Assembly (NCBI GenBank): GCA_000091205.1
Contig: AP006495.2
Source: Cyanidioschyzon merolae
Lineage: Eukaryota
Strand: one strand, 5' to 3'
DNA: 64,000 bases
Each line of letters opens with the position of its first letter. The first letter of the stretch is position 1. The notes below the pieces were generated by a model, which was not told the origin of the DNA, did not search any database, and was given only the letters and a program-made list of their open reading frames with translations. Position numbers and translations under genes: made by a program. This document shows, piece by piece, positions 16,620 through 59,244 of this stretch.

Positions 16620-18239
16620 GTGTGGCCTGAGCGCCCAAGCGTACGCCGCTGCGGCCTCTGCGCCCGCGGCGTCTTATCGACGACGCCGCATCGGCTGCAG
16701 GGACGGTTTCCCGCTTCCGAGTTCTGCTTCTTGCACGTCATCCAACGGGTAAAACATTCTGTGGAGATGTTTGCGGGCGCACCTGTTTACTCTGATATAA
16801 GTTCGAGCAGTTTCTTAGGAATCAGGGGCGCAGAGAAGAGACGTTTTCGCCTCGATGAAAAACCGTACGCGGCACCAGGTAGCGCCTCGGCGCGTCGGGT
16901 GCAGCGACTGTCTCCGCTGACAGTGCAACTGGCAATAGCCGCCGGCACCAAAGGCCTCTACCGAGACATGCCGGACAACACAAGCAGAAAGCGTGTTGTC
17001 GTAACTGGAGTAGGTATCGTGTCCTGTTTCGGCAGTGACGTGGACCTCTTTTACCAGAAGCTACTTAAAGGAGAAAGCGGCGTTCGTCCCATTGACAAGT
17101 TCGAGTGCTCGAACTGGGAGACGCGCATTGCTGCCTGGATCGCTCCGGAACAGTTCCAAACCGAGGGTTATATCGCACCGAAACTTGCTAGGAGACTGGA
17201 CAGCGTGCTGAAGTACACAATCGTTGCGGGAAAGAGGGCCTTGGAACACGCCGGCCTCGGCATCGGCTCCGATCCATACAATGCACTGCGGAAGGATCGC
17301 GTCGGGGTCATTGTCGGGAGTGGCATGGGCGGCCTCGAGACCTTCGCAGAAGGTTGTGAAAAGCTTTCCACGGGTGGTGTTCGGAGGATGTCCCCGTTTT
17401 TCATCCCGTATTCGATCACCAACATGGGCTCAGCTTTGCTTGCGATAGAAACTGACTTCCACGGACCGAACTACTCCTTGTCAACAGCTTGTGCGACCAG
17501 CAACTACGCGATTCATAACGCTTACATGCATATCGCACGGGGAGACGCCGACATGATGCTCTGTGGCGGTAGCGAGGCTGCAGTGCTTCCGATCGGGCTC
17601 GGTGGCTTCATTGCTTGTCGGGCGCTCAGCAAGCGCAACGATGAGCCGCACCGCGCCAGCCGCCCCTGGGACAAGCACCGTGATGGTTTTGTCATGGGCG
17701 AGGGATCTGGTGTTCTAGTTCTCGAGTCGCTCGAGCACGCCAGGGCACGCGGAGCGCCCATTCTCTGCGAATATCTCGGTGGTGCCTACACCAATGACGC
17801 TTTCAGTGTGACGGAGCCCGTTCCCGAAGGTACTGAAGTGGCGAGATGCATTCGACTGGCGCTGGCTGATGCCAGTGTCGAGCCTGCCCAGGTCAGTTAT
17901 GTCAACGCTCATGCAACGTCAACGCCCCTTGGTGATATTGCAGAGTATCGTGCCATGTCTTCTGTTCTGGATATGAAGCGGATAACGATGAATTCAACCA
18001 AGTCACTCATTGGACATGCGCTGGGAGCGGCTGGCGCTCTCGAAGCAACGGCAACCATCATGGCTATTCGCACCGGGGAGGTGCACCCTACCGCCAACGT
18101 CGAGGAACCGGAGCCCGAGATTGAAGCGGACCTCGTTCGTAACCAGAAGAAAAGCCTCAACATAGAGGTAGCGATTTCGACTAGTTTCGGTTTCGGGGGG
18201 CACAATAGTGTCTGTGTATTTGCTCCGTTCGTCGAGTAG
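16620..18239 (+). CDS. 3-oxoacyl-[acyl-carrier-protein] synthase (KAS I/II type, mitochondrial mtKAS-like) with N-terminal presequence
   Basis: VVVTGVGIVSCFGSDVDLFYQKLLKGESGV. Active-site Cys SLSTACATSNYAI. His motifs NAHATSTP and SLIGHALGAAGA. C-terminal SFGFGGHN. Confidence 0.85.
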   Translation: MWPERPSVRRCGLCARGVLSTTPHRLQGRFPASEFCFLHVIQRVKHSVEMFAGAPVYSDISSSSFLGIRGAEKRRFRLDEKPYAAPGSASARRVQRLSPLTVQLAIAAGTKGLYRDMPDNTSRKRVVVTGVGIVSCFGSDVDLFYQKLLKGESGVRPIDKFECSNWETRIAAWIAPEQFQTEGYIAPKLARRLDSVLKYTIVAGKRALEHAGLGIGSDPYNALRKDRVGVIVGSGMGGLETFAEGCEKLSTGGVRRMSPFFIPYSITNMGSALLAIETDFHGPNYSLSTACATSNYAIHNAYMHIARGDADMMLCGGSEAAVLPIGLGGFIACRALSKRNDEPHRASRPWDKHRDGFVMGEGSGVLVLESLEHARARGAPILCEYLGGAYTNDAFSVTEPVPEGTEVARCIRLALADASVEPAQVSYVNAHATSTPLGDIAEYRAMSSVLDMKRITMNSTKSLIGHALGAAGALEATATIMAIRTGEVHPTANVEEPEPEIEADLVRNQKKSLNIEVAISTSFGFGGHNSVCVFAPFVE

Positions 18240-19510: not shown

Positions 19511-21235
19511 TCACGAATGGTTGGATGGATGCTTTGCGACCGGCCAAGAAGGCGCAGGTCGTTTTCTCCAGGAAAGTACTCCAAATAGGAGTCCCTTTCT
19601 CGAAAGAAAAATCACAAAACATCCAAGAAAGACCGTTGCCAGCGCCGTCGTGCCGAGAACAGTCCCCAGCCAAGGCGCCAACGAGTCTGTAATATTGTAC
19701 CAGGGACAATTCAGGTTCATGCCGAAGATATCTGCGATGAAGTTCATCGCAAAAAACATTGCTGTACACAAGTGCTGCAGTAAGTTGAATGCGAGCATGC
19801 GGTTCTGCACGGCGTCTAGCTTGATATCCATTGTTGCCTCCGAGTCGTTGACTTTTTCATCCAGAAGCTCAGCGCGATTTGAAAGCGCCTGAAACAGCTG
19901 GTAATAGCTTTCCAGTAGCGTTTCTACGTATTCATGATCTAGTGGATGGCGCGGTGTTTCCGGATGGTAGTACTTGTCAGTCAAATACATGTTGGACATA
20001 TCATCGTCTTCACCGAGGACGCGATCGAATAGCTGCGAGAGTCGTCTGATGCGCGACAAGAACAACGTCAAGTGGCGCATATGCAGACGCATGTTCTCGA
20101 TTCGGCTCGAGCTCAAGGTCCGATTCAAGTCACGCAAGTCTCGATCTATCTGCTGCTCGATCACGAAATAGAATTCCTCGAGTTCAAAGTAGGCTGCGAT
20201 GAACATGCTTTCTAGCACGATAAATTCGAATGCATTGTAGATGTCCAGGCTCGCACTCTGCAATCTTTCCGTGATAATACGGATAGCACGCTGCACCCTT
20301 TCGGCCTCGTGGTTAAAAAGCAACAAACGATGTGATTGGATGACTGCGCGGAGGTAATCATCAAGCACCAGGATTATGGCATTGTCGCGCACAAGTAGCA
20401 CCTGCTCTGAACGAAAAGTTGGATCCACAAGGCGAAGGTCACGCAGCTGTACCGGTTCGCATTTGCTTATGATTCCATCCCTCTCTCTGTGAGTCAATCC
20501 GGTGTTCACCGGGTGAATATCGAGGTCCAGCGCATCCGCCAGCGGAGTTTCCTGTTCAACCAGTACCTTCGAACGACGGCGCGGTGAGGATGCCTCTGCA
20601 GCCGGATATACGGGGCGTCGCAGCTCATCGATGAGATCCTCTTTGGACATCGCTCGCAAGACGCTTCGACCGAAAGTGTCGAATTCGAGGAACTGGATAA
20701 GACTATCCCGCCGCCACATTTTTTCTTTCACGTTTCTCGTGATTGATGTTCGTCGCGACGTCACCATCTCCAGATACTCATGCGCGACGGCAGCCGCAAA
20801 AGTAAGGCCATTCCGACGCAATGTCTGCTCATCGAGCCGAAGATCGGGGCCAAACTTTGCATCCGCTATTTTGTTGACTAGTCTATTACTTGCAAAGGCT
20901 GCAGCTGATGTCAGGACTTTGCCCAGGGTTCCCGGACGTTCCGGTCTCTTCCCTGCGAGCGGGGTGTTGCTGGTTAGCTTCGGTGTCCAGTCGCCAGCTG
21001 CGAGCGTGTCCGGGCCATCACGAGTAGTGCTGCCTCCCGAGAAGGTCCCAACCGCTGGCAACACCGGCAGCGTTCTTTGTCCAGACGCGATTCGTCTCGC
21101 TTGGTGAGAGACACTCTCAGGTGCGGCTGTAAGCGGCGGTGTCGCGCTCCTTGGGCGCTGAAGTTGTTCGAGTTCCGCTGCCGAGACCCTGTGAGGCGCG
21201 TTACGCCTTGTCGTGCTCAGACTGCCCCTACGCAT
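19511..21235 (-). CDS. MRS2: CorA/MRS2-family Mg2+ channel (canonical GMN motif)
   Basis: IFGMNL (GMN at 19716-19724, minus strand) followed by two C-terminal TM helices. Conserved MYLTD...PLDHEYVETLLESY helix region. N-terminal Ser/Pro/Arg-rich disordered region. Confidence 0.7.
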   Translation of the reverse strand: MRRGSLSTTRRNAPHRVSAAELEQLQRPRSATPPLTAAPESVSHQARRIASGQRTLPVLPAVGTFSGGSTTRDGPDTLAAGDWTPKLTSNTPLAGKRPERPGTLGKVLTSAAAFASNRLVNKIADAKFGPDLRLDEQTLRRNGLTFAAAVAHEYLEMVTSRRTSITRNVKEKMWRRDSLIQFLEFDTFGRSVLRAMSKEDLIDELRRPVYPAAEASSPRRRSKVLVEQETPLADALDLDIHPVNTGLTHRERDGIISKCEPVQLRDLRLVDPTFRSEQVLLVRDNAIILVLDDYLRAVIQSHRLLLFNHEAERVQRAIRIITERLQSASLDIYNAFEFIVLESMFIAAYFELEEFYFVIEQQIDRDLRDLNRTLSSSRIENMRLHMRHLTLFLSRIRRLSQLFDRVLGEDDDMSNMYLTDKYYHPETPRHPLDHEYVETLLESYYQLFQALSNRAELLDEKVNDSEATMDIKLDAVQNRMLAFNLLQHLCTAMFFAMNFIADIFGMNLNCPWYNITDSLAPWLGTVLGTTALATVFLGCFVIFLSRKGLLFGVLSWRKRPAPSWPVAKHPSNHS

Positions 21236-21720
21236 GGCGAGAGCCTGTCAAACAAAAAGCGGCCTGTAATCTTTGGAGAGCAACAGCACCAAATACCATT
21301 ACCTTTCACGAAGAATAAACCACGAAGCGTGTTGCAGGCCTCGTATACACAAGTATCCGAGTATACGCCAAGAAATGCACCTGACGATAAAATGAGCCAC
21401 GAGTTGACCCGATGCGCTTTTTCTTCTCTCTCCGTCAGTTTACCACGAGCAGCAGTCTGTTTTTCACTCGGTCCGCAAACGTTACCGTCAGAGGCCCACA
21501 AGTCAGTCACACACAAACACCGACACACCTATCCGCACCAACGTCACCGAATATTGTAATCTAAAATGTGTTCAGTGTCACGAGGCGCCGAAGCGACGAC
21601 GGCTCGGGTGGCGTTCAAGACGTCCGGTCCGGTGCCTTCAGGTCCGCCTCCGGGGCGTATCAAGCGAATCCGCGGCGGGCGCCTTGCGCGCAGCGAATCG
21701 CTGCAGGCGCAGATTAACCC

Positions 21721-22612
21721 GGATGCATGCTCGTCGATCGAGCGCTCTTCAGCGTGTACCCGGGATACTCCATTGCGTATGAATGAGATGCGCAAGCCCC
21801 GGATGCATGCTCGTCGATCGAGCGCTCTTCAGCGTGTACCCGGGATACTCCATTGCGTATGAATGAGATGCGCAAGCCCCGGATGCATGCTCGTCGATCG
21901 AGCGCTCTTCAGCGTGTACCCGGGATACTCCATTGCGTATGAATGAGATGCGCAAGCGTCGAATGCATGCTCGTCGATCGAGCGCTCTTCAGCGTGTACC
22001 CGGGATACTCCATTGCGTATGAATGAGATGCGCAAGCGTCGAATGCATGCTCGTCGATCGAGCGCTCTTCAGCGTGTACCCGGGATACTCCATTGCGTAT
22101 GAATGAGATGCGCAAGCCCCGGATGCATGCTCGTCGATCGAGCGCTCTTCAGCGTGTACCCGGGATACTCCATTGCGTATGAATGAGATGCGCAAGCCCC
22201 GGATGCATGCTCGTCGATCGAGCGCTCTTCAGCGTGTACCCGGGATACTCCATTGCGTATGAATGAGATGCGCAAGCGTCGAATGCATGCTCGTCGATCG
22301 AGCGCTCTTCAGCGTGTACCCGGGATACTCCATTGCGTATGAATGAGATGCGCAAGCGTCGAATGCATGCTCGTCGATCGAGCGCTCTTCAGCGTGTACC
22401 CGGGATACTCCATTGCGTATGAATGAGATGCGCAAGCGTCGAATGCATGCTCGTCGATCGAGCGCTCTTCAGCGTGTACCCGGGATACTCCATTGCGTAT
22501 GAATGAGATGCGCAAGCGTCGAATGCATGCTCGTCGATCGAGCGCTCTTCAGCGTGTACCCGGGATACTCCATTGCGTATGAATGAGATGCGCAAGCGTC
22601 GAATGCATGCCG
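21721..22612. repeat. 80-bp minisatellite, about 11.1 tandem copies, with two unit variants arranged in blocks
   Basis: Unit ggatgcatgctcgtcgatcgagcgctcttcagcgtgtacccgggatactccattgcgtatgaatgagatgcgcaagcccc. Unit junctions alternate ...gcaagcccc|ggatgc... (P) and ...gcaagcgtc|gaatgc... (S) in the order PP SS PP SSSSS. The run of identical 68-aa ORFs at 80-bp spacing in the ORF track is an artefact of this array. Confidence 0.95.
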
Positions 22613-23895
22613 CCCTGCCCAGCGTATGACGAGACGAATCATTCACGGTAGTGGTGCTGCATCCGCCGGAGATGCGTGGAATGTATGCACACCCCAATGC
22701 TAGGGTGGCTGACTATGCGCTGGTCTAGTGGGAACCCAACTTTGTCGATTGTGTGATCTCATCAGGCAAGGATCAACGTCCGGTAGCGAGATTCAGCCAA
22801 CTGTGTAGCAGACTGGCGACATTCGCACGCCGTGTGTTCGTTCCAGTGTGATGCATCCAAGGATTCCATGTCTATCCGAATTACTGGGCCGGATACGTGC
22901 AGGTCCCGGCGGAACGAAACTCGTAGTGAACTTGCCAACAGCGTCCAATATATTCTGGAACTAGCTCATGAAACGATTTTTCGAAACACCCCTTGGCGGT
23001 CGCAATCGCGCTCGTTTCATCGCCGATGTTCATAACAGCGCACGGTTGGTGCCCTGTATTTCGCTTGTCGGACATGCGATTTCGGGAAAAGATTCCGTTC
23101 GCTTTGCTGCACAATATTGCGATACCTTTGGCATTGGCGTCGAGCAAGCAGCTGTTGCGTCTCTCTCCCGAGAGCATTGTGGTACAAAAAAGTCCCAGCG
23201 GCACTTGTGAAACGTCCTATAGTAATCGAGGGAGCCTGGGCTCACTCGAAGCAGCAGCGACTGCGTTTGGGACTGCAGCGACGCGACGAGCGATCAACCA
23301 CAAACGCTGCAAAGCACATCATACGCCTTGCATTGTGTACGAGACTAGCCTCGTGCCGTAACAGACCACAAATGGGTGTATCGCTTTTTTATAACTGCAC
23401 ACTGGCATTTGTACTGAAGAACGATTTAGCGCTCATTCGTGTTTTCGCTGGAATCTTCTTCGACTTGTTGCGTATGGAACGCGTGCAATAAACTAGAATT
23501 GAAAACATACACGTACTTCAACGACCAGTCTGGCGAGAACGCTGGCGAGAGCAGCATGCCATGAACCCAGATGAACACGCTCGCAAACTGTCGCAGAATT
23601 ACCGGCGATACTGTTAGGTTTTATTGGTTCTCTCGTGCTGTCAATTCGAAGCGTCGGACCATGTGTCCACTAGTCCAGCAGCAAACATCGATAGCGTATC
23701 GCATCAGCGAGTCATCCAGATCGATACGTTAACGCATTCTGGATTGATTGCAGCAGCGCTGCGTACAACGCACTGCTAGTCTTTACGCTGTGCTGCGTAC
23801 TTCTCCGGTAGTCAGCACGATACCCTTGGGTGAAAGTTTACCTGTACTGCGGGACGTGAACGCTGTCCTAGCTTGGATTTTTCCTCTGGATTGCA

Positions 23896-25200
23896 ATGAG
23901 TGTGGCGGGAACGCCTCAGTTCAGCGAACTGAGCGAGGAGAACCAGAACAGCGGTGATGGTTTGGCAAAAAAGTCGCCGAATGGTCTAGAAATGACCAAA
24001 ACGAGCTTTGCGTCAGAGAAGGATACCGGAGCGAGTTGGATGAGCAGCACTGGCTCGCGGGCAACAACCCACCTTGAGTGTTTCGAGTTTTTCGTTGACG
24101 GAAATAGGAAACTTCGAAGCATAAGCCGCTTAGAGCTTCTCCGACGGGCGCGGGAGGCGAGCGCTGACCAACAAGTGGTCGCTGACGTCACTGGTCTATC
24201 CGGAATGTCTGAAGCAGCAGTGCTGGCTGCTGTCGGTATTGATGCTCAGCGGCCGGGCGAGGAGCCTCTCGGCAAGAAGGAGCGGAAGCGCATCCGCCGC
24301 TATTTGAAGGGGTTTCTACAACCACGCGACATCCGCCAGGTCGATCCCGCGTTTGATGCGAAACCAGCGATCTGGGTGCGGCGAAACGTCATCGTCTTTA
24401 GTTTGGAACATCTGCGGGCGTTGATATTTGCGGATGGGCTTCTCTTGTTCAATCCCTCGGAGCAGCGAGTTCAAGCAGCAGCGGAGTCACTGGAGAAGCG
24501 GCTGACTCTGAGCATCAGAAACGAGGACGCAGATCAGGAACCGTTCGAGTTCTGCGCTCTAGATGCGTTGTTGAGTCTCGTTCATGAATACATCGAGAGC
24601 GACCTGAGTGATTTCGAACCCAGCATGTACACGCTGCTGAACGAGCTCACCCATAAGCTGAGCGCGAAACGTCTCGAGCGCCTACGTGTCCTGAAACAGG
24701 ACCTCATGGCTCTTGTTACCCGAATGGATGGTGTGCGTGACGTGCTGCAGGCATTGCTTGAAGAAGACGAAGACATGTCCAGAATGTATCTGACGGATAT
24801 TGCCAGACATCCGAGCGTCACCCGATCACCACTTGATCACGAAGATGTCGAGCAACTGCTGGAATCCCATCTCTATCAGATCGAGGACGCACTGCGACGA
24901 ACGGATTTACTGGCTGCAGCGGTGGACCACACCGAGGATCTGGTGAATATCCAACTGGGGACTTTGCGAAACCGCTTACTCATGGTTGACGTGACACTAA
25001 ATATCATGGAGGCAGTGTTCACGGCAGTCGGTTTTCTGACCGGGCTCTTCACGATGAATCTACAGGCCCCATTTTTCAAGCTGGATAACGGAGGGACGCG
25101 CTGGTTTATCGTTGTGGTTGTGCTGAACTCCTCGTTTGCAATCGTAGCCGTGTTTCTGCTCATTCAATGGGCCCGCAGAGCGCGCTACCTAAATGGTTGA
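23896..25200 (+). CDS. CorA/MRS2-family paralogue with a variant signature motif (TMN instead of GMN)
   Basis: Homologous to the 19511..21235 gene (DMSRMYLTD...SPLDHEDVEQLLESH vs DMSNMYLTD...HPLDHEYVETLLESY). GLFTMNLQAPFF has TMN at 25051-25059. Two C-terminal TM helices are present. Confidence 0.6.
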   Translation: MSVAGTPQFSELSEENQNSGDGLAKKSPNGLEMTKTSFASEKDTGASWMSSTGSRATTHLECFEFFVDGNRKLRSISRLELLRRAREASADQQVVADVTGLSGMSEAAVLAAVGIDAQRPGEEPLGKKERKRIRRYLKGFLQPRDIRQVDPAFDAKPAIWVRRNVIVFSLEHLRALIFADGLLLFNPSEQRVQAAAESLEKRLTLSIRNEDADQEPFEFCALDALLSLVHEYIESDLSDFEPSMYTLLNELTHKLSAKRLERLRVLKQDLMALVTRMDGVRDVLQALLEEDEDMSRMYLTDIARHPSVTRSPLDHEDVEQLLESHLYQIEDALRRTDLLAAAVDHTEDLVNIQLGTLRNRLLMVDVTLNIMEAVFTAVGFLTGLFTMNLQAPFFKLDNGGTRWFIVVVVLNSSFAIVAVFLLIQWARRARYLNG

Positions 25201-37394: not shown

Positions 37395-37735
37395 TCCAGG
37401 TGCTGCAGCAGCAGTGAAGATGCCCTGAGAGCGATCAAGCAGAACTCGGCACACGAGGGCATCGAGGTCGATGCACTGGTCCCTCTACGCAGTAACATTC
37501 AATCATGAAGCTCCTGCAGCAGCAGTGAAGATGCCTGGAGAGCGATCAAGCAGAATTCGGCGCACGAGGGCATCGGGGTCGATGCACTGGTCCCTCTACG
37601 CAGTAACATTGAACCATGAAGCTCCTGCAGCAGCAGTGAAGATGCCTGGAGAGCGATCAAGCAGAACTCGGCACACGAGGGCATCGAGGTCGATGCACTG
37701 GTCCCTCTACGCAGTAACATTGAATCATGAAGCTC
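37395..37735. repeat. 111-bp tandem repeat, 3 copies, immediately upstream of the Deg protease start
   Basis: ctgcagcagcagtgaagatgcc recurs at 37403, 37514 and 37625 with near-identical 111-bp units. The repeated 37-aa peptide in ORF 37471..37959 is an artefact of the array. Confidence 0.9.
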
Positions 37736-43140: not shown

Positions 43141-43440
43141 CGACAGGATACCTGCTAGACTCGTCTTGACTCGATATGCCAATAACTGCGAGACAGGTAT
43201 CCTATCTAAAAAATACGATATTCGCGGTGGAGGTCCACGCTTGCCAGGATACCTGCTAGATTCGTCTTGACTCGATATGCCAGTGACTGCGAGACAGGTA
43301 TCCTATCTAAAAAATACGATATTCGCGGTGGAGGTCCACGCTTGCCAGGATACCTGCTAGATTCGTCTTGACTCGATATGCCAGTGACTGCGAGACAGGT
43401 ATTCAATCTAAAGAATACGATGTTCGCGACGGGGCTCTGC
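43141..43440. repeat. 101-bp tandem repeat, about 3 copies, each unit containing an 8-9 bp inverted repeat (hairpin) with a roughly 39-nt loop
   Basis: caggatacctgctag recurs at 43144, 43245 and 43346. Within each unit ggatacctg...caggtatcc are reverse complements. Confidence 0.9.
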
Positions 43441-58209: not shown

Positions 58210-59244
58210 TCAATGCACAAACGCTATGCGTTTCTCGCCATTCGTAGTTGTACTTTCTAATGCGAGCAATCCTCGAACTTTCGCCCTTCTTTCCATTTGC
58301 TCTTGCGTCAGCGCTCCGTACGTTTGTATATTACCAGGGCTCCGCTGGCACTTTTCTTTCTCGACGCTCTGAAGTGTACACCCCAGCTCGTGGCGTGTAT
58401 ACGATGTTCGGAACTTATCTACAGGTATCGTGACGAAACAGTGTGCGCACTCCTTGTACGTTCTTGTCGTCGGGGCTGGCGTCGTTCCTTTTTGGGTCAT
58501 CCAGCGCCCTGCCCAATAAGCTACTATGAGCCTCTGACTTTCATTCTCCTTCAGGGCGCTCAGCCGATTGAAAAAGTTCGCGAACGCGCGCCGCTTCCCA
58601 CAGTGTAGATTCATTCGCAATCGAGCCCACCGGGGCTTTGGAAATTCTTTTCGCAGCGCCTCCCAATGAGCAACGCGAACTTGCATGAATTTCATAAAAG
58701 CTTGAAAGTCCGCTCATCGGATCGTCAGTGCGCTCAAAGCTGCCAGGTGATCCTTCATTCCTGCGTTCCATGTCTCAATTTTCTTCCTCGCATTCATTAT
58801 ACCGGATTCTCGAGAATATCTAGTTCTTGAGAACCTCAACAGACGCAAGTCGCTCTCACGTAAGTTGCCGTCAATGCCATCTACCGCACGCTTCGGTGCT
58901 GCGATGGTCATGATATTCGTATTCCCAGGGTCCGTGCCAACGACGAAGTCGTTATCCTGCACTTTCTATGTCGCAGGATCCGCCACCTTCTCATCTTCAT
59001 GCTTCGCCGCGTCAACGACGAGGCCCTTGTCATGCACCTCCTGTGTCGCGGGATCCGCCTCCTTCTCATCTTCATGCTTCACCGCCTCAACGACGAGGCC
59101 CTTCTCATGCACCTCCTGCGTCGCAGGATCCGCCTCTTTGATTTCTTCATCCTTCGTGACGGGCGCGGCCGAGGGCGGAACTGGACGATTTATCTTCAAC
59201 CGCCGATAGTGTACACACAAAGCTACTCCATCGGTTTCGATCAT
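58210..59244 (-). pseudogene. TnpB/Fanzor-like RuvC nuclease ORF (OMEGA-type), disrupted by in-frame TAG at 58966-58968 and a stop at 58714-58716
   Basis: Ruv[19 protein letters not shown] (D near 58931). Arg-rich linker RLLRFSRTRYSRESGIMNARKKIETWNAG. RuvC-II-like VRVAHWEALRKEF (E near 58661). Zinc-ribbon TTRTYKECAHC (near 58445). Degenerate RuvC-III region KCQRSPGNIQTYGAL. Spacing is about 90 aa from D to E and about 70 aa from E to CxxC, as in ISDra2 TnpB. Confidence 0.55.
58970..59165. repeat. 75-bp (25-aa) intragenic tandem repeat, about 2.6 copies, inside ORF2 of copy A (single copy in copy C)
   Basis: gtcgcaggatccgcc... recurs at 58970, 59045 and 59120, encoding ADPATQEVH(E/D)KGLVV(E/D)A(V/A)KHEDEKE repeats. 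Confidence 0.85.

Follow-up and report, generated by a model that had tools for sequence, protein, structure and literature searches.

A threonine in place of the selectivity-filter glycine in an MRS2-like protein of Cyanidioschyzon merolae

[quoted passage not shown] In a 64,000-nucleotide stretch (the window, to which all positions below refer) of the 866,983-bp chromosome of the cyanidiophycean red alga Cyanidioschyzon merolae 10D (GenBank AP006495.2), two MRS2-like genes lie close together, and one of them, gene B, reads Thr-Met-Asn (TMN) at this place. The locus thus raises the question of whether the threonine is genuine, how old it is, and what an MRS2-like protein lacking the filter glycine does in the cell. 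The two genes and their motifs are located as follows.

19511-21235, minus strand: gene A, 574 amino acids (aa), ATG start, MRS2-like with canonical GMN (P0048; BAM81114.1/XP_005537150.1)
19716-19724, minus strand: GMN codons of gene A (ggc atg aac)
23896-25200, plus strand: gene B, 434 aa, ATG start, MRS2-like with TMN replacing GMN (BAM81115.1/XP_005537151.1/UniProt M1V5R2)
25051-25059, plus strand: TMN codons of gene B (acg atg aat), T386 standing opposite the Gly of GMN

The filter threonine and its gene family

A preliminary description of this DNA had reported two homologous MRS2/CorA-type genes arranged head-to-head, the first with GMN and its paralogue with TMN. Inspection of the sequence bore out all three statements. 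Between the start codons lie 2,660 bp; protein A carries FGMNL within ADIFGMNLNCPWY, encoded by ggc-atg-aac running from 19724 to 19716, and protein B carries FTMNL within TGLFTMNLQAPFF. The two proteins are 32% identical across 370 residues (E 1e-44), with T386 of B aligned opposite the glycine of A. Upstream of the B start codon at 23896, at a distance of 10 codons, the frame is closed by a stop, which fixes the N-terminus of B, barring an intron. Protein A is 100% identical to P0048 by tblastn and protein B matches BAM81115.1 exactly; GenBank labels both BAM81114 and BAM81115 "similar to mitochondrial magnesium transporter Mrs2p". The long intronless ORFs, a GC content of about 54% and the divergent genes would also have suited a trypanosomatid, an origin set aside because the homologues pointed to Cyanidiococcus and C. 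merolae.

We examined whether the threonine is conserved in orthologues of B. The exact B sequence was found on 23 contigs, drawn from assemblies of NCBI, JGI, ENA and Logan, and FTMNL is present in all 11 motif-covering members of its 90% identity cluster. Two additional C. merolae-like metagenome loci read TMN as well. The orthologues of Cyanidiococcus yangmingshanensis (70% identity) and of a second Cyanidiococcus-like lineage (67%) also have TMN, and that of a Cyanidium-like genome (ENA ERZ1300892; 52-54%) has TVN. Threonine was therefore kept at the first motif position in every orthologue, and GMN was seen in none of them, whereas all other relatives returned by the first search (P0005-P0025) have GMN. 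A metagenome scan for further B lineages, for example from Galdieria, returned only the two additional C. merolae-like loci already mentioned, both identical, and GMN relatives at no more than 41% identity.

These data bear on whether TMN arose through faulty sequencing or assembly, or whether B is a decaying pseudogene. The preliminary description held a one-base error to be unlikely, and the codons agree, since GGC or GGT requires three changes to become ACG and GGG requires two, never one. The codon is ACG in every C. merolae-like copy of B, that of strain 10D included; several independent assemblies of metagenome or SRA data have the same codon, and so do other genera. Together with the threonine in 11/11 cluster members, this excludes a sequencing error.

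Open reading frames (ORFs) are intact and full-length in all four lineages, and no disabling change was seen in B. By Nei-Gojobori comparison between genera, A and B behave alike: the proportion of synonymous differences (pS) is above about 0.74 and the synonymous distance (dS) is undefined or greater than 2, that is, saturated. The nonsynonymous distance (dN) separating Cyanidioschyzon from the two Cyanidiococcus lineages is 0.12-0.24; to Cyanidium it rises to 0.42-0.53. In the dN/dS comparison proposed earlier, dN lies far below the saturated dS, and the classical ratio between genera is not computable at such saturation. C. merolae-like strains differ by 5-8 substitutions per gene, too few to inform on selection. 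As judged from these substitution levels, A and B are under purifying selection, and the intact frames in four lineages, combined with low dN at saturated synonymous sites, exclude a pseudogene. No observation in favour of error or decay was found, and we regard both as extremely improbable.

Genes A and B belong to a larger family. C. merolae has at least five MRS2-like genes, of which A and E keep GMN and B, C and D lack the glycine.

Gene A: GMN, codon GGC; in the window
Gene B: TMN, codon ACG; in the window
Gene C: HMN (FHMNL), codon CAC/CAT; BAM81010.1, 470 aa, same chromosome, outside the window
Gene D: SMN (FSMNL), codon AGC; BAM80058.1, 611 aa, another chromosome
Gene E: GMN (FGMNL), codon GGA; 536 aa, next to D in a C. 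merolae-like contig

When 1.84 billion representative proteins were searched with a profile, the glycine proved to be missing from B's three nearest relatives as well (P0060 with HMN, P0061 and P0062 with SMN), and cluster look-ups assigned all three to cyanidialean algae. GMN was present in 122 of the 137 newly returned representatives, and most of the remaining ones were truncated. In bootstrapped neighbour-joining trees (76 sequences, about 414 columns), B, C and D were monophyletic in 99-100 of 100 replicates, and A, E and the protein P0161 in 99 of 100. Each of the B, C and D groups contains members from Cyanidioschyzon, Cyanidiococcus and Cyanidium. Among these lineages, the motif is TMN three times and TVN once for B, HMN three times and, in Cyanidium, HSN for C, and SMN three times for D. 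The closest relatives outside the cyanidialean algae, proteins of Porphyridium and of cryptophyte nucleomorph type (of red-algal origin), retain GMN. Within the A/E subfamily, P0161 itself (ENA, 541 aa) reads YIGMTLWLPIF, so that the filter Asn is replaced (Gly-Met-Thr) while the glycine is kept.

The trees also qualify the earlier term "paralogue pair". A and B are homologous and adjacent, but they fall into separately supported clades, each of them old, and are therefore not a recent tandem duplicate. In agreement with this, B is 35-38% identical to GMN proteins from other organisms and only 32% identical to its neighbour A, which places the two in different old subfamilies of a family of at least five genes.

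The monophyly of B, C and D and their present codons are compatible with a simple history. The glycine was probably lost once, in the common ancestor of B, C and D, by a change of GGC (Gly) to AGC (Ser), the codon that D still uses; Ser would then have been changed to Thr (ACN) in B and, in two steps, to His (CAY) in C. We also considered that an ancestral pair of one GMN and one glycine-less gene was duplicated as a unit, yielding A-B and E-D. This candidate was set aside, as support for the corresponding groupings was weak (B+D 65/100, A+E 54/100) and E does not lie beside D in the Cyanidium-like genome.

Fold and pore of protein B

Protein B belongs to the MRS2-like family by homology and by fold. 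It matched Pfam PF22099 with 148.1 bits (E 3.3e-43) and A matched it with 101.5 bits (E 5.6e-29), against a curated cut-off of 27 bits. By sequence, B matched the structures of CtMrs2 (8q8p/8q8q, E 4e-28), the N-terminal domain of yeast Mrs2 (3rkg, 9e-21) and human MRS2 (9e-12). The HMMER alignment to 8q8p set "fltglfTMNlqa" on "flaglyGMNlen", placing TMN on GMN. An AlphaFold2 model of B (mean predicted local distance difference test score, pLDDT, 73) has strands at residues 59-77 and 158-185, a helix at 316-387, a short loop and a second helix at 400-428. This layout fits the family fold, in which an alpha/beta N-terminal domain is followed by a long helix running into the first transmembrane helix (TM1), a loop and the C-terminal TM2. 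The top PDB matches of the model in Foldseek were CtMrs2, yeast Mrs2 and human MRS2 (target-normalised TM scores 0.74-0.83; 0.80 for CtMrs2), followed by bacterial CorA. Under the motif-based definition of the 2-TM-GxN proteins B is an exception, as it has no Gly-x-Asn at the end of TM1, whereas A satisfies that definition with GMN. B would probably be a subunit of a pentameric channel of the CorA/Mrs2 type. The gating motif, the Glu codon and the transmembrane helices of B are placed as follows.

24325-24336, plus strand: RDxR gating motif R144-D145-I146-R147, equivalent to RDLR of CtMrs2 (prdirqvd against prdlrkid in the 8q8p alignment)
24958-25056, plus strand: pore helix TM1, about residues 355-387 (AlphaFold2 helix 316-387, CtMrs2 register)
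25009-25011, plus strand: Glu372 codon (gag), 14 residues before the motif, at the 'P1' ring position of CtMrs2 T427
25093-25179, plus strand: TM2, about residues 400-428 (AlphaFold2 helix 400-428)

Apart from the glycine, the known functional positions are retained. The RDLR gating motif has been described in CtMrs2, as have pore-lining residues G441, T434, T427, D420 and R413, spaced seven residues apart (PMC11919701). In an alignment of 22 family sequences, R144, D145, R147, N359 and N388 of B are invariant. Residues R358, N359 and D365 of B correspond to R413, N414 and D420 of CtMrs2, and the filter Asn is kept as N388. Within the B lineage R358, N359, D365, E372, T386 and N388 are all invariant, and the transmembrane pore region is among the best-conserved parts of the protein.

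We then tabulated the pore positions in 258 family sequences, taking the register from the five CtMrs2 pore residues and counting from the first residue of the motif. Each glycine-less paralogue turned out to have its own charge change near the filter.

B: Glu at -14 (E372) in 15/15; no acidic residue in 183 others, which have mostly Thr, Ser or Ala
C: Asp at -7 in 20/20; 0/183 others
D: Arg at -3 in 19/19; 0/183 others
D: Ser or Gly at -21, a position that is Asp or Glu in 148/183 others

B keeps R(-28), N(-27), D(-21) and the filter Asn. In the loop past the motif the net acidic charge (acidic minus basic residues) averages about 0 in B and D, against +1.0 in the other relatives. A fixed charged change specific to each glycine-less paralogue is what would be expected of a re-tuned permeation path, and not of passive tolerance or of lost conduction; on these alignments the pore of the glycine-less paralogues thus appears to have been re-tuned rather than merely to have put up with the loss.

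How could such a pore work without the glycine? The preliminary description had the glycine contacting Mg2+ at the pore entrance, with substitutions there affecting transport, and the literature agrees: the contact is made by a ring of backbone carbonyls (PMC3629940, PMC11919701), and a Gly-to-Ala change abolishes transport (PMC4613352). If the filter Gly gives only its backbone carbonyl to the Mg2+ site, Thr could still supply that carbonyl and would add a hydroxyl. The new Glu ring at -14, two helical turns below the Thr, may compensate, so that the permeation path would be remodelled and not destroyed. B would then still conduct Mg2+ or a related divalent cation, with selectivity or conductance changed. 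Three things together argue for B as a working pore subunit: long-term purifying selection, the survival of all other pore and gating elements, and the lineage-specific charged pore residues. Our favoured reading, held with some reserve, is that B is a functional, selectively maintained pore subunit with a remodelled selectivity filter and with altered selectivity or conductance. In its full form this reading, to which we give somewhat better than even odds, joins two statements: that B is such a subunit of a pentameric channel, and that the first residue of its motif has been Thr since before Cyanidioschyzon, Cyanidiococcus and Cyanidium separated.

Surroundings, location and rival explanations

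The arrangement of A and B and the composition of their N-termini both bear on whether the two proteins work together. A block comprising a ketoacyl-ACP synthase gene, A, B, a ThiF/rhodanese gene and a cullin gene is collinear in four lineages, and A orthologues were found in both Cyanidiococcus and Cyanidium. The head-to-head layout given in the preliminary description holds for C. merolae and for two Cyanidiococcus-like genomes, where the A-B spacer is 993 bp (L001) and 1,079 bp (L002). It does not hold for the Cyanidium-like genome (L004, 8001-11300), in which the B orthologue with TVN is inverted and stands upstream of the A orthologue, in tandem and at a distance of 96 bp, the rest being collinear. 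In that genome the A orthologue (L004 9660-11300, ENA ERZ1300892) itself reads FGSNL (GGG TCG AAC), whereas a 93%-identical protein of Cyanidium caldarium (P0031, CDCA07G2082) has FGMNL; ATG to TCG takes two base changes, and the pair there would be TVN and GSN, neither of them canonical. Conserved A-B adjacency was considered as proof of functional coupling and rejected, because the entire neighbourhood is collinear and the orientation has changed in Cyanidium.

Genes D and E are adjacent as well. In a C. merolae-like contig (L016 5001-8885, JGI 3300050356), D (SMN, called with 704 aa) lies tail-to-tail with E (GMN, 536 aa), 159 bp away. In the Cyanidium-like genome (L017) E is absent beside D, which there has no MRS2-like neighbour. 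For C, no MRS2-like neighbour was seen in the loci examined.

In the window, the first 40 residues of B hold 3 basic and 5 acidic residues and those of A hold 7 basic and 3 acidic, a comparison of composition only. Across Cyanidioschyzon and Cyanidiococcus, the same segment has 3 basic and 5-8 acidic residues in B and 0-1 basic and 10-11 acidic in D. The N-termini of A and E are basic, rich in Ser and Thr, poor in acidic residues and presequence-like, whereas those of B, C and D in these two genera are acidic. By this composition B may reside in a non-mitochondrial membrane, and the pattern would fit A and E as the organellar GMN channels, with B, C and D acting in other membranes.

With these observations in hand, we weighed two other accounts of B. 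B could be a regulatory or modulatory subunit that forms heteropentamers with its GMN neighbour A and tunes or reduces conductance, as Lpe10 does for Mrs2, and Alr2 for Alr1, in yeast; a non-Gly residue might then be tolerated because one to four GMN subunits would still shape the filter. Pentamers of one kind of subunit or of several have been described for the CorA family (PMC6972854). A and B stay neighbours in each of the four cyanidialean lineages examined despite belonging to different old subfamilies, and with D beside E in the C. merolae-like contig two of the three glycine-less genes are paired with a GMN gene, which is suggestive of a partnership. The 32% identity of A and B is also near the level between Mrs2 and Lpe10. 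The adjacency may, however, be plain synteny, as the ketoacyl synthase, ThiF/rhodanese, cullin and other genes around the pair have stayed in order too, and the orientation varies, three lineages having the two genes head-to-head and the Cyanidium-like genome having them in tandem. D is unpaired in that genome and C is unpaired everywhere examined. The differing N-termini suggest separate compartments for the supposed partners, three regulators for two channels would be unusual, and the lineage-specific charged residues resemble pore engineering and not passive tolerance. We consider a modulatory role of this kind doubtful, though it deserves some weight; it and the remodelled pore are not mutually exclusive.

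A different possibility is that B conducts nothing and is an MRS2-fold protein kept for another role, for instance as a Mg2+ sensor or as a scaffold acting through its N-terminal domain. Engineered GMN mutants are inactive (PMC4613352, PMC11919701), and the loss of net acidic charge from the loop past the motif would fit as well. Yet R358, N359, D365, E372, T386 and N388 do not vary in the B lineage, the pore being among its best-conserved parts, and polar and charged pore rings have been kept while a new invariant Glu was gained, which would not be expected after conduction had been lost. This makes a non-conducting B improbable.

Several points also weigh against the remodelled, conducting pore that we favour. 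The Gly-to-Ala change in yeast Mrs2p abolishes Mg2+ transport (PMC4613352), and since engineered changes of the glycine abolish transport, a homomeric TMN pore that conducts Mg2+ is not the default expectation. Transport, localisation or expression data for the A-E proteins were not found in the searchable literature. The model of B has pLDDT below 50 in the loop at 387-396 and is a monomer, so that it does not inform on filter geometry. The trees are distance-based (neighbour-joining) and not maximum likelihood, and the pore counts for A-D include redundant members of 90% clusters, the "other" set consisting mostly of representatives at 50% identity. As to location, the proposal is read from N-terminal composition, and it is weakened by the B orthologue of the Cyanidium-like genome, whose N-terminus is longer, basic and rich in Ala and Ser. 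On the other side, two species of the oomycete Aphanomyces carry TMN proteins, which supports the viability of this motif.

Cyanidiophycean red algae live in metal-rich hot springs at pH 0.5-3. It is conceivable, though we hold it only tentatively, that the glycine-less genes form a cyanidiophycean CorA/Mrs2 subfamily with a rebuilt filter, combining [Thr/His/Ser]-Met-Asn with a new charged ring in each paralogue, that confers different selectivity or acid-resistant gating, possibly together with adjacent GMN partners (A-B, E-D). If so, such pores might, for example, admit Mg2+ and exclude Al3+, Ni2+, Co2+ or protons at acid-facing membranes.

The spacer between the divergent starts and the gene upstream of A have features of their own.

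21236-23895: spacer between the A and B start codons, 2,660 bp, presumably holding both promoters
21723-22610: minisatellite inside the spacer, 80-bp unit, 11.1 copies, 98% matches

The minisatellite has 11.1 copies in the window, 4.1 in one C. merolae-like contig (L005) and about 1 in another (L011), and its left flank of 525 bp is about 99% identical in all three. Copy number thus appears to vary among C. merolae-like strains, although short-read assembly may have collapsed repeats. A scan of the spacer for sigma-70 promoters and terminators, not designed for eukaryotes, gave no enrichment. Other tandem repeats of the window lie at 37403-37735 (111 bp, 3.0 copies), 43144-43428 (101 bp, 2.8 copies) and 58938-59136 (75 bp, 2.7 copies). 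The ORF at 16620-18239 on the plus strand, upstream of A, encodes a beta-ketoacyl-ACP synthase (ketoacyl-synt domains were found in the syntenic loci), and its GTG-start version has about 130 residues before the domain.

Relation to known channels

Compared with the fungal and animal mitochondrial Mrs2 channels of known structure (CtMrs2, 8Q8P/8Q8Q; yeast Mrs2, 3RKG; human MRS2, 8IP3), B falls in the same Pfam family and has the same fold, with two C-terminal transmembrane helices and the motif closing TM1. RDxR, the Arg, Asn and Asp of the pore and the Asn of the filter are conserved between them as well. B departs from CtMrs2 in having Thr for G441, Glu for the T427 ring and Phe-Lys for E449/E450 in the TM1-TM2 loop, and from mitochondrial Mrs2 in lacking, by composition, a presequence-like N-terminus.

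Two CorA-type paralogues per cell, as with A and B, are also found in Leishmania (MGT1/MGT2) and in yeast (Mrs2/Lpe10, Alr1/Alr2), and there one modulates the other or is required together with it. Mrs2/Lpe10 and Alr1/Alr2 form heteromers in yeast, and none of these four yeast proteins is known to depart from GMN. In Leishmania both MGT1 and MGT2 reside in the endoplasmic reticulum; MGT1 transports Mg2+ and MGT2 appears to be essential (PMC12998195).

The same TMN occurs at the same position in proteins of Aphanomyces stellatus (KAF0686148.1, P0110) and Aphanomyces astaci (RHY59213.1, P0114), as FTMNL or FTMNV. These proteins never grouped with B, C and D (0/100 bootstraps), and their surrounding pore residues differ. 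TMN therefore arose at least twice, independently.

Some ZntB proteins carry Val in the middle of the motif, comparable to the TVN of the Cyanidium-like B orthologue. ZntB resembles B in being a CorA-superfamily protein with a changed motif, there tied to a different substrate, Zn2+ (PMC4613352, PMC6972854). It differs in keeping the glycine (GxN, with Val or Ile in the middle), in being bacterial and in being only distantly related.

Natural members that depart from GMN are thus already known, and B is not new in kind. The middle residue is altered in ZntB, and in rice the motif is AMN in OsMRS2-4 and OsMRS2-5 and GIN in OsMRS2-8, conserved departures in eukaryotic MRS2 proteins that include loss of the glycine (PMC4613352). 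The rice members belong to a monocot lineage and have the small, apolar Ala, whereas the cyanidialean clade has Thr, His or Ser, three old paralogues and charged pore changes. In the searchable literature we did not find described a replacement of the filter Gly by Thr, His or Ser, an old glycine-less cyanidialean subfamily, its charged pore changes or the convergent TMN of Aphanomyces. At least one survey dropped sequences that lack GMN (PMC13022745).

In the systems tested, single GMN substitutions abolish Mg2+ transport, yet old, selected paralogues carry Thr, His or Ser, which should come as a moderate surprise to CorA/Mrs2 specialists. Genes A-E form a natural experimental series on the role of the filter glycine, and on a link of filter remodelling to acidic, metal-rich water. 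C. merolae is genetically tractable, so that the question of the glycine is directly testable there. The present assignments would also correct the blanket "mitochondrial Mrs2p-like" annotation of four C. merolae proteins.

As a separate observation, a cluster of 22 plant-type MRS2-like members (P0177; NCBI, JGI, ENA and Logan) reads LFAMNVQL, that is, AMN, and is abundant in metagenome and SRA assemblies.

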